Positions 57,880 through 58,060 are shown, counted from the stretch's first letter. The stretch is 64,000 nt of DNA from Streptomyces sp. NPDC092296 (GCF_044755465.1 NZ_JBIVRB010000010.1:27517-91516), one strand, 5' to 3'. Numbers and translations are program-made. Notes: generated by a model from the letters alone, not told the origin.

Positions 57880-58060
57880 GGAAGGCGAGGGGGCGAGGGT
57901 GTGGGGGGCGGGGGGTGCGGCGGGGGGGGCCCGGGGGGGGGGGGCCGGGGGCCCCCCCCGGGGGGGGGGGGGCCGGCGGCGGGGGGGGGGGCCCGCGGGG
58001 GGGGCGGGGGGGGGGGGGGGGGGGGGGGGGGGGGGGGGGGGGGGGGGGGGCTCCGCGGGC
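57880..58060. repeat. Extreme G-rich low-complexity tract including a ~55-nt uninterrupted poly-G run (poly-C on the coding strand of the operon)
   Basis: Direct reading of 57870-58080 shows gggggcggggggtgcggcgggggggg... and then more than 50 consecutive g at about 58003-58057. Confidence 0.9.

Follow-up and report, generated by a model that had tools for sequence, protein, structure and literature searches.

A probable strain-specific expansion of a C-run in the untranslated mch-mcd linker of the ethylmalonyl-CoA operon of Streptomyces sp. NPDC092296

The spacer between mch and mcd in the ethylmalonyl-CoA operon of Streptomyces sp. NPDC092296 contains an almost pure G/C tract, with 45 consecutive G on the top strand that are read as C45 in the mRNA. 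We favour, with some reservation, the explanation that a short C-run in the untranslated linker before mcd has truly undergone a runaway expansion in this strain alone, and that the assembly probably gives neither the exact length nor the internal sequence of the tract correctly. It appears quite probable to us that a long G/C-only expansion truly exists at this linker, and doubtful that the published sequence is exact, the number 45 included. The analysis was carried out on a stretch of 64,000 nt (NZ_JBIVRB010000010.1:27517-91516 of GCF_044755465.1), here called the window, and positions are counted from its first nucleotide.

Results

Genes of the operon and source strain

The initial annotation had placed the tract within an ethylmalonyl-CoA operon, and this identity holds by the domain matches of the genes (Table 1). 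The product of mcd, which carries the full set of acyl-CoA dehydrogenase domains (Pfam, NCBIfam), and the product of mch match exactly MFJ6215801.1 and MFJ6215802.1, respectively, both from Streptomyces sp. NPDC092296. The operon mRNA corresponds to the C-rich strand, in line with the earlier description of the tract as poly-C in the mRNA, and its template is the G-rich strand. The 766-aa plus-strand ORF that had been noted across the tract is present (56228-58528) and is spurious, as had been proposed, because the real genes sit on the minus strand.

The nearest relatives of mcd are found in Peterkaempfera (95% at the amino acid level, approximately 91% at the nucleotide level), followed by Kitasatospora (approximately 91% at the amino acid level), and the operon architecture of NPDC092296 is of the Peterkaempfera/Kitasatospora type. 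Judged from these sequence comparisons, the genus label Streptomyces is probably wrong for this strain.

Table 1. Positions of genes and sequence elements in and around the mch-mcd spacer of the window.
Feature	Position	Strand	Remarks
mcd, (2S)-methylsuccinyl-CoA dehydrogenase-type acyl-CoA dehydrogenase, 400 aa	56660-57862	-	downstream of the tract
mcd ribosome-binding site, GGAG	57870-57873	-	7 nt before the mcd ATG; read from the sequence
Proximal C-rich, G-poor linker, CCCCCCGCCCCCCACACCCTCGCCCCCTCGCCTTCCACGACA	57874-57916	-	counterpart of the 24-26 nt linker of Peterkaempfera, slightly longer (alignment)
Strain-specific G/C-only insertion	57917-58045	-	without counterpart in any relative (alignment)
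G45 (C45 in the mRNA)	58006-58050	+	longest uninterrupted G run; final 5 bases (58046-58050) double as the base of stem-loop 2
Stem-loop 2, GGGGGCUCCGCGG-CCGCCACGC-CCGCGGAGCCCCC	58046-58080	-	13-bp GC-rich stem without a U tract
Double stem-loop element	58046-58134	-	directly after the mch stop codon; covariance model R1
Stem-loop 1, GGGCGGCCG-CCGUCAU-CGGCCGCCC	58094-58118	-	comparison of clade loci
mch, mesaconyl-CoA hydratase, MaoC family, 167 aa	58128-58631	-	upstream of the tract; Pfam PF19315 (MC_hydratase), PF01575
mcl, CitE/HpcH-type lyase	58645-59637	-	domain match
ecm/meaA, B12-dependent mutase	59672-61738	-	domain match
Zinc-ADH-type reductase, consistent with ccr	61740-63365	-	domain match

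Position and composition of the tract

The limits of the spacer between the two minus-strand genes mch and mcd, given earlier as 57863-58127, were confirmed by the sequence and enclose 265 nt. The top strand of the spacer consists of 180 G, 64 C, 13 T and 8 A, corresponding to 68% G and 92% G+C. The uninterrupted G run had been described as roughly 55 nt long, with more than 50 consecutive G; the longest run actually comprises 45 G, and 54 positions (57997-58050, G8-C-G45) are reached only if one interrupting C is ignored. Further runs on the top strand are G8 at 57922, G12 at 57933, C8 at 57952, G13 at 57960 and G11 at 57981. A stretch of 135 nt (57917-58051) is free of A and T, the runner-up in the window being 32 nt long, and all non-G bases within this core are C, including interruptions of C8, CCC and CC.

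As a simple sequence repeat, that is, a mononucleotide run far over background, G45 stands against a maximum of 7 for homopolymers elsewhere in the window. At 36% G, the number of such runs expected in 64 kb is roughly 1e-15 (about 64000 x 0.363^45), and G45 is therefore not due to chance. To our knowledge, a homopolymer of 45 nt is longer than any known from a bacterial chromosome, and our literature search on long runs of G or C in prokaryotes, Streptomyces included, found no precedent.

In mRNA sense, the strain-specific insertion reads C40(+5)-G-C8-GCGGG-C11-GCCGCCGG-C13-G8-C5-GG-C12-GGG-C8-GCCGC, and the template (top) strand presents G8, G12, G5, G13, G11, G8 and G45 inside 130 nt. With at least four runs of at least three G or C close together, the tract has the composition of a sequence prone to form G-quadruplexes or i-motifs. 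In the predicted RNA fold, C45 is unpaired and G8 is paired with the flanking C runs.

Repeats of other kinds were observed elsewhere in the window. Approximately 12 tandem copies of the 17/18-nt unit GCCCCCC(C)GGCCCGCCAA form an apparently intergenic array at 46422-46626 that is closely followed by a saccharopine-dehydrogenase-like ORF (46655-47755, plus strand), and this makes the array a second C-rich (sense-strand) low-complexity expansion before a gene. An exact-protein look-up of this ORF returned no record, and its called start codon probably differs. The region of approximately 4.4 kb at 43383-47822 yielded no ORF by a strict GC3/GC2 filter and, by a looser one, the high-GC3 ORFs 44458-45759 (minus strand) and 46655-47755 (plus strand). 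A 124-nt tandem repeat (2.3 copies) is located at 45808-46089 and a 16-nt repeat (4.2 copies) at 47744-47816. The long array at 18938-19285, with periodicities of 12, 36, 48 and 84 nt (TCCACCGCCGGT-like units), may be a repetitive coding region.

Spacer and linker in related genomes

Most of approximately 70 non-Kitasatospora loci, including nearly all of those from Streptomyces, have an mch-mcd spacer of 0-7 nt, and the others one of 10-49 nt. Long spacers occur in nine Kitasatospora species (128-285 nt) and in three Peterkaempfera species (130-146 nt). In all of these cases, the layout is stem-loop 1, stem-loop 2, a C-rich and G-poor linker, GGAG, 7 nt and the mcd ATG, and the sequence GGAGCCGC(G/A)C(C/G)ATG at the mcd start is kept in every member of the clade. 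The linkers of all 14 relatives contain 45-57% C and 14-26% G.

In Peterkaempfera, the linker begins with C5 directly after stem-loop 2, and in five Kitasatospora species, one of them represented by the complete genome NBC_01560, runs of C9, C10, C10, C10 and C12 are located a few bases past stem-loop 2. Homopolymers of at least 9 nt were found only four times in 536 kb of Streptomycetaceae loci, each time as one of these Kitasatospora linker C runs; the locus with the fifth run was retrieved after that count. The length of the C run at this one site varies across species (C5, C9, C10, C12 and C45), and within the strain the sole hint of variation is a 2-nt disagreement at the tip of a contig from a second assembly (see below).

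Aligned with Peterkaempfera, the window matches through ...GGAGCCCCC in the 3′ arm of stem-loop 2 and the match resumes from ...CACGACAGGAGCCGCGCCATG. The intervening segment measures 24-26 nt in the relatives and approximately 160 nt in the window, that is, approximately 135 nt extra, and its final 40 nt or so in the window are still similar to the linker of the relatives. The distance from stem-loop 2 to the mcd ATG is 186 nt in NPDC092296, with 76% C and 18% G, compared with approximately 42-63 nt in Peterkaempfera. Because the extra 135 nt or so are confined to the linker, they are best described as an expansion of the C-run that starts at the foot of stem-loop 2, and an expansion of this size is present in one strain only, NPDC092296. 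By these comparisons, the mch-mcd linker is a natural hotspot for C-rich low-complexity expansion.

In one of the related loci (L207, positions 2365-2900; Peterkaempfera sp. SMS 1(5)a, CP162102.1), a frameshift interrupts mch after ...TEYD and the annotation lacks a gene at this place, which reflects either a pseudogene or an indel error of a complete-genome assembly.

A conserved double stem-loop follows mch

The double stem-loop is present in Kitasatospora and Peterkaempfera (loci L003-L010, L024, L203-L208, L329 and L331) and absent from Streptomyces. Fifteen sequences share stem-loop 2, in which several pairs show compensatory changes and the loop ends in CACGCC. The core of stem-loop 1, GCCGCCGTCATCGGC, is identical in nine Kitasatospora loci, all Peterkaempfera genome loci and the window, and the metagenome relative L329 carries a variant. 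Over the entire element, compensatory changes affect 10 of the 22 predicted base pairs (15 sequences), and both loops contain G(U/C)CA(U/C). Covariance model R1 gave 59.8 bits at the element and 23.4 bits at the next match in the window; across 545 kb of related loci, the model located the element at the mch-mcd spacer only.

Searches for related elements and signals gave the following results. Rfam returned no match for 57700-58300 on both strands (E <= 10), and a consensus scan of 57400-58700 revealed neither a sigma-70-like promoter nor a canonical terminator. Stem-loop 2 does not qualify as an intrinsic terminator, since the hairpin is followed by C45 instead of a U tract. A metagenome scan with the 15-mer GCCGCCGTCATCGGC retrieved 120 stretches, all of them chance matches in unrelated GC-rich contigs, with the second hairpin in none. 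A dispersed REP-like repeat was considered and rejected: a pattern search and R1 with filters off both gave a single copy in the window, and the next matches were generic gene-end hairpins.

The element resembles REP-type or terminator-like intercistronic hairpins, and the U-less terminators of actinomycetes, in having two GC-rich stem-loops without a U tract after a stop codon within an operon. Unlike these, it has conserved loops (CGUCAUC and ..CACGCC), occurs at a single locus and belongs to no Rfam family. In kind, it is a terminator-like or intercistronic hairpin element, confined to the clade and not previously described.

Several observations concern the surroundings and variants of such hairpins. 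The spacers of L329 (2768-2860), L003 and L024 contain C-rich tandem repeats upstream of stem-loop 1, with CCGCCCACCGACCCT repeated approximately 4 times and CCCCTATAGA 3-4 times; simple repeats accumulate on either side of the conserved double stem-loop. Among the P. bronchialis loci, L204 and L206 differ from L203 and L205 by a 4-nt ACGC duplication in the loop of stem-loop 2 (CACGCACGCC vs CACGCC), and each of the two variants is backed by one NCBI and one Logan assembly. Weak R1 matches in the window at 23411-23454 and 54702-54736 are GC-rich gene-end hairpins without a U tract and point to U-less hairpins as the usual way of marking gene ends in the NPDC092296 genome.

A second assembly of the same strain

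Comparison with other assemblies had been recommended as a check on the tract, and we used the Logan contigs (k=31) of run SRR35628544 from the same strain. Both mcd and mch are identical in these contigs, which match the window with 100% identity over 4270 and 3569 nt. One contig stops at 58063, and the other, L001, matches up to 57929 and ends with CC at 57930-57931, where the window has GG; what was left unassembled (57930-58062) is the tract. L001 reproduces the proximal linker (57874-57916) exactly, and it also contains 38 nt of strain-specific C-rich sequence that is found in no relative. The check therefore supports the flanks and these 38 nt, and fails for the core of the tract, which was not assembled and is bordered by the 2-nt mismatch.

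In an error-free graph with k=31, repeated 31-mers exist inside G45 only, and the contigs would be expected to reach approximately 58036 and 58020. The actual contigs stop 105 and 43 nt short of this expectation. Read windows of 150 nt over the tract contain 94-98% G+C, and the early stops fit a collapse of coverage and quality at very high G+C. Two P. bronchialis runs served as a control, and their Logan contigs pass through the homologous spacer of 142-146 nt with both stem-loops and agree there with the NCBI assemblies; therefore, an ordinary spacer would have been crossed in NPDC092296 as well. One and the same set of NovaSeq reads probably underlies the Logan and GenBank assemblies, so that they represent an independent assembler and not independent data. 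Because the tip of L001 differs from the window, at least some reads disagree with the assembled sequence.

Sequencing and assembly context of the G run

The published NPDC pipeline used PCR-amplified libraries, NovaSeq 6000 sequencing (2x150) and assembly with SPAdes 3.14.1 (-careful -k 25,55,95), and BBDuk removed terminal G runs of at least 5 nt (PMC10760148). Two-colour chemistry, which had been suspected from the G run, was thus indeed the platform of the collection (PMC10760148), and we infer that the same pipeline was applied to the later strain NPDC092296. The strain is part of the NPDC collection, from which strains are offered to the public (PMC10760148).

Read-tail artefacts belong to contig ends or dead ends; the tract is internal, located more than 5.9 kb from the nearest end of the window on a contig of 206.8 kb and flanked by syntenic mch and mcd. 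Such tails are also pure G on the strand that is read outward from unique sequence, whereas G45 (top strand) adjoins unique mch-side sequence at its 3′ end and the tract contains C8, CCC and CC. A collapsed de Bruijn graph would give a run of k or k+1, and a run of 45 agrees with none of the values 25, 55 and 95. The region contains no repeated k-mer at k = 55 or 95, and the SPAdes path therefore needs k-mers with both flanks of G45.

As a control, we inspected long G/C runs in IMG/VR contigs, where 100 of 120 runs of at least 45 nt lay within 150 nt of an end of the retrieved stretch and 41 of these reached the end itself. Separately, 19 of the 120 runs (including those in L260, L316, L288 and L313) were more than 300 nt away from either end, several in GC-only contexts like that of the tract. 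A frameshift map of the window, which would indicate long-read homopolymer errors, revealed no obvious broken genes and is moot here, the source being a short-read assembly. A literature search on poly-G assembly artefacts found nothing usable.

Discussion

The tract is a simple-sequence homopolymer expansion, hence of a known kind, and is distinctive in its length, its intercistronic place and its host. Hypermutable poly-G/C contingency tracts of approximately 7-20 nt are known from Neisseria, Campylobacter, Helicobacter and Bordetella. Like these, the site carries a mononucleotide G/C run whose length varies between related genomes and for which slipped-strand mispairing is the obvious origin. 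Unlike these, the run in NPDC092296 is several-fold longer than approximately 7-20 nt, lies between cistrons rather than in a promoter or at the 5′ end of a coding region, has no evident on/off logic, and is set in approximately 90 nt of additional G/C-only low complexity in an actinomycete with 75% G+C.

A pure sequencing or assembly artefact had been ranked as the most likely explanation in the initial annotation. It would imply that the true spacer is ordinary, with 130-160 nt as in Peterkaempfera, and that SPAdes built the G/C stretch from low-signal two-colour reads (G as no-signal, with sporadic C) or from PCR-slippage products. The two-colour NovaSeq 6000 chemistry and PCR-amplified libraries of the NPDC pipeline speak for it, as do the extreme length of the tract, the restriction of the non-G bases of the 135-nt core to C, never A or T, the missing support for the core in the Logan assembly with its tip off by 2 nt, and the majority of long G/C runs in public short-read contigs, which resemble end artefacts. 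The tract also shares with two-colour poly-G tails the platform (per the pipeline), the dominance of G on one strand and the unstable short-read assembly, but differs from them in its internal location with unique sequence on both sides, its C runs and a length unrelated to k, terminal G having been trimmed. Several points oppose the artefact more directly. On the same strand, G45 is followed by the correct unique sequence, whereas dark-cycle tails do not recover; moreover, reads from the mch side would read C45, which bears signal, and their dark tails would appear as C and not as G on the top strand. Terminal G runs of at least 5 nt were trimmed before assembly, 45 is not among the k used, any k-mer of 55 or 95 across G45 has to span both flanks, and the nearest window end is over 5.9 kb away from the tract on the 206.8-kb contig. 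The k=31 assembly breaks at both edges of the tract, although ordinary P. bronchialis spacers were crossed in two runs, and L001 holds strain-specific C-rich sequence beyond that of the relatives. Finally, mch and mcd are adjacent in every relative, and the insertion is located exactly where the relatives carry an unusual C5-C12 run. Thus, the earlier suspicion stands insofar as the exact tract is untrustworthy, given the failure of Logan across it and the 2-nt mismatch, while a pure artefact is not better supported and seems rather unlikely to us.

Selection for a regulatory device, either a hypervariable contingency switch or a G-quadruplex/i-motif whose length would set mcd expression and tune the ethylmalonyl-CoA flux, is in our view improbable. 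The C-run length does vary by species at the exact site (C5, C9, C10, C12 and C45), which has a conserved structured element on one side and the mcd ribosome-binding site on the other; furthermore, the template strand is the G-rich strand, and the mismatch at the Logan tip could mean length heterogeneity in the culture. Against this, the large expansion is present in a single strain, the tract lies outside the coding region, there is no promoter-like element with a spacing to alter, and the known bacterial switches comprise approximately 7-20 nt. Phase variation acts through a promoter spacer or a reading frame, and the tract is intercistronic and untranslated and is accompanied by no sigma-70-like promoter. 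An insertion or remnant of foreign or mobile DNA would account for a discrete block of approximately 135 nt that is absent from all relatives; however, the block consists of G and C only, is continuous with the pre-existing C-run, and has no terminal inverted or direct repeats, no ORF and no second copy in the window, and we rejected a mobile-element insertion as very improbable.

We therefore return to a real expansion at the linker. The initial annotation had named a real slippage tract between co-transcribed genes as its fallback, and this is now the favoured reading, its existence being supported by the C-runs at the homologous site and by the break in the Logan assembly. A slippage expansion appears likely, with a short C-run after stem-loop 2 (C5 to C12 in the relatives) as the putative seed and replication slippage plus some template switching as the probable cause. 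Because it is shared by no relative, we regard the expansion as a tolerated mutational accident and not as an adaptation, and there is no sign of selection. Some points weigh against a real expansion with consequences for mcd. The Logan and GenBank assemblies probably share one NovaSeq read set, and coverage from PCR libraries is very low at 98-100% G+C, so that the assembled path may rest on few error-prone reads. The tract is kept in no relative and hence offers no evolutionary evidence for function, G8 may pair with neighbouring C runs and shorten the single-stranded length available to Rho, and the effects of Rho and of G-quadruplexes described below are what we infer from composition.

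At its primary site, Rho recognizes 5′-YC dimers, with a preference for C-rich RNA that is single-stranded (PMC4499133). For Streptomyces, Rho-dependent termination and subsequent trimming have been given as the origin of U-less 3′ ends that have a stem upstream (PMC6742748). A rut site requires at least approximately 70 nt of untranslated RNA with far more C than G, and the 186 nt between stem-loop 2 and mcd, with 76% C and 18% G, have this composition. As in rut sites that cause Rho polarity, a long, untranslated, C-rich and G-poor RNA precedes a gene, and the upstream stem-loop could mark a processed 3′ end. In contrast to natural rut sites, the linker is a near-homopolymer and far more extreme, and its G8 and GGG islands can pair with C runs, which leaves it a candidate by composition.

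The conserved spacer module, with a U-less stem-loop, a C-rich linker and its own ribosome-binding site, looks like an intra-operon uncoupling device. The C-dominated linker RNA may load more Rho and cause premature termination before or inside mcd; given 76% C over 186 nt, Rho loading would therefore be stronger and mcd expression lower, also relative to ccr-ecm-mcl-mch. Stem-loop 2, which has no U tract, would then form the protective 3′ end of the shortened transcript. On the template strand, G-quadruplexes or triplexes may stall RNA polymerase and the replisome and render the tract length unstable. An improbable extension of this scheme is that a poly(dG).poly(dC) run of at least 45 nt within a 135-nt block is stably carried directly behind the double stem-loop and that mcd expression is set by its length, through a tunable 'super-rut' in the RNA combined with a G-quadruplex brake on the template strand.

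If the tract is an artefact, one GenBank record has to be corrected, and nothing more. For thousands of NovaSeq/SPAdes assemblies of actinomycetes, such tracts can be judged by their internal or terminal location, the length of the run relative to k, the homologous site in relatives and a second assembler. If the tract is real, it would be, for a bacterial chromosome, a G/C homopolymer of exceptional length and a natural test of how an actinomycete with 75% G+C replicates and transcribes poly(dG).poly(dC), a DNA prone to form G-quadruplexes and i-motifs; it would also reveal how Rho handles near-pure poly-C RNA in vivo. Should the super-rut reading be true, the tract would be an unusually long homopolymer-based bacterial regulator. 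Independent of the tract, a conserved double stem-loop supported by covariation was found between mch and mcd in Kitasatospora and Peterkaempfera, and not in Streptomyces.
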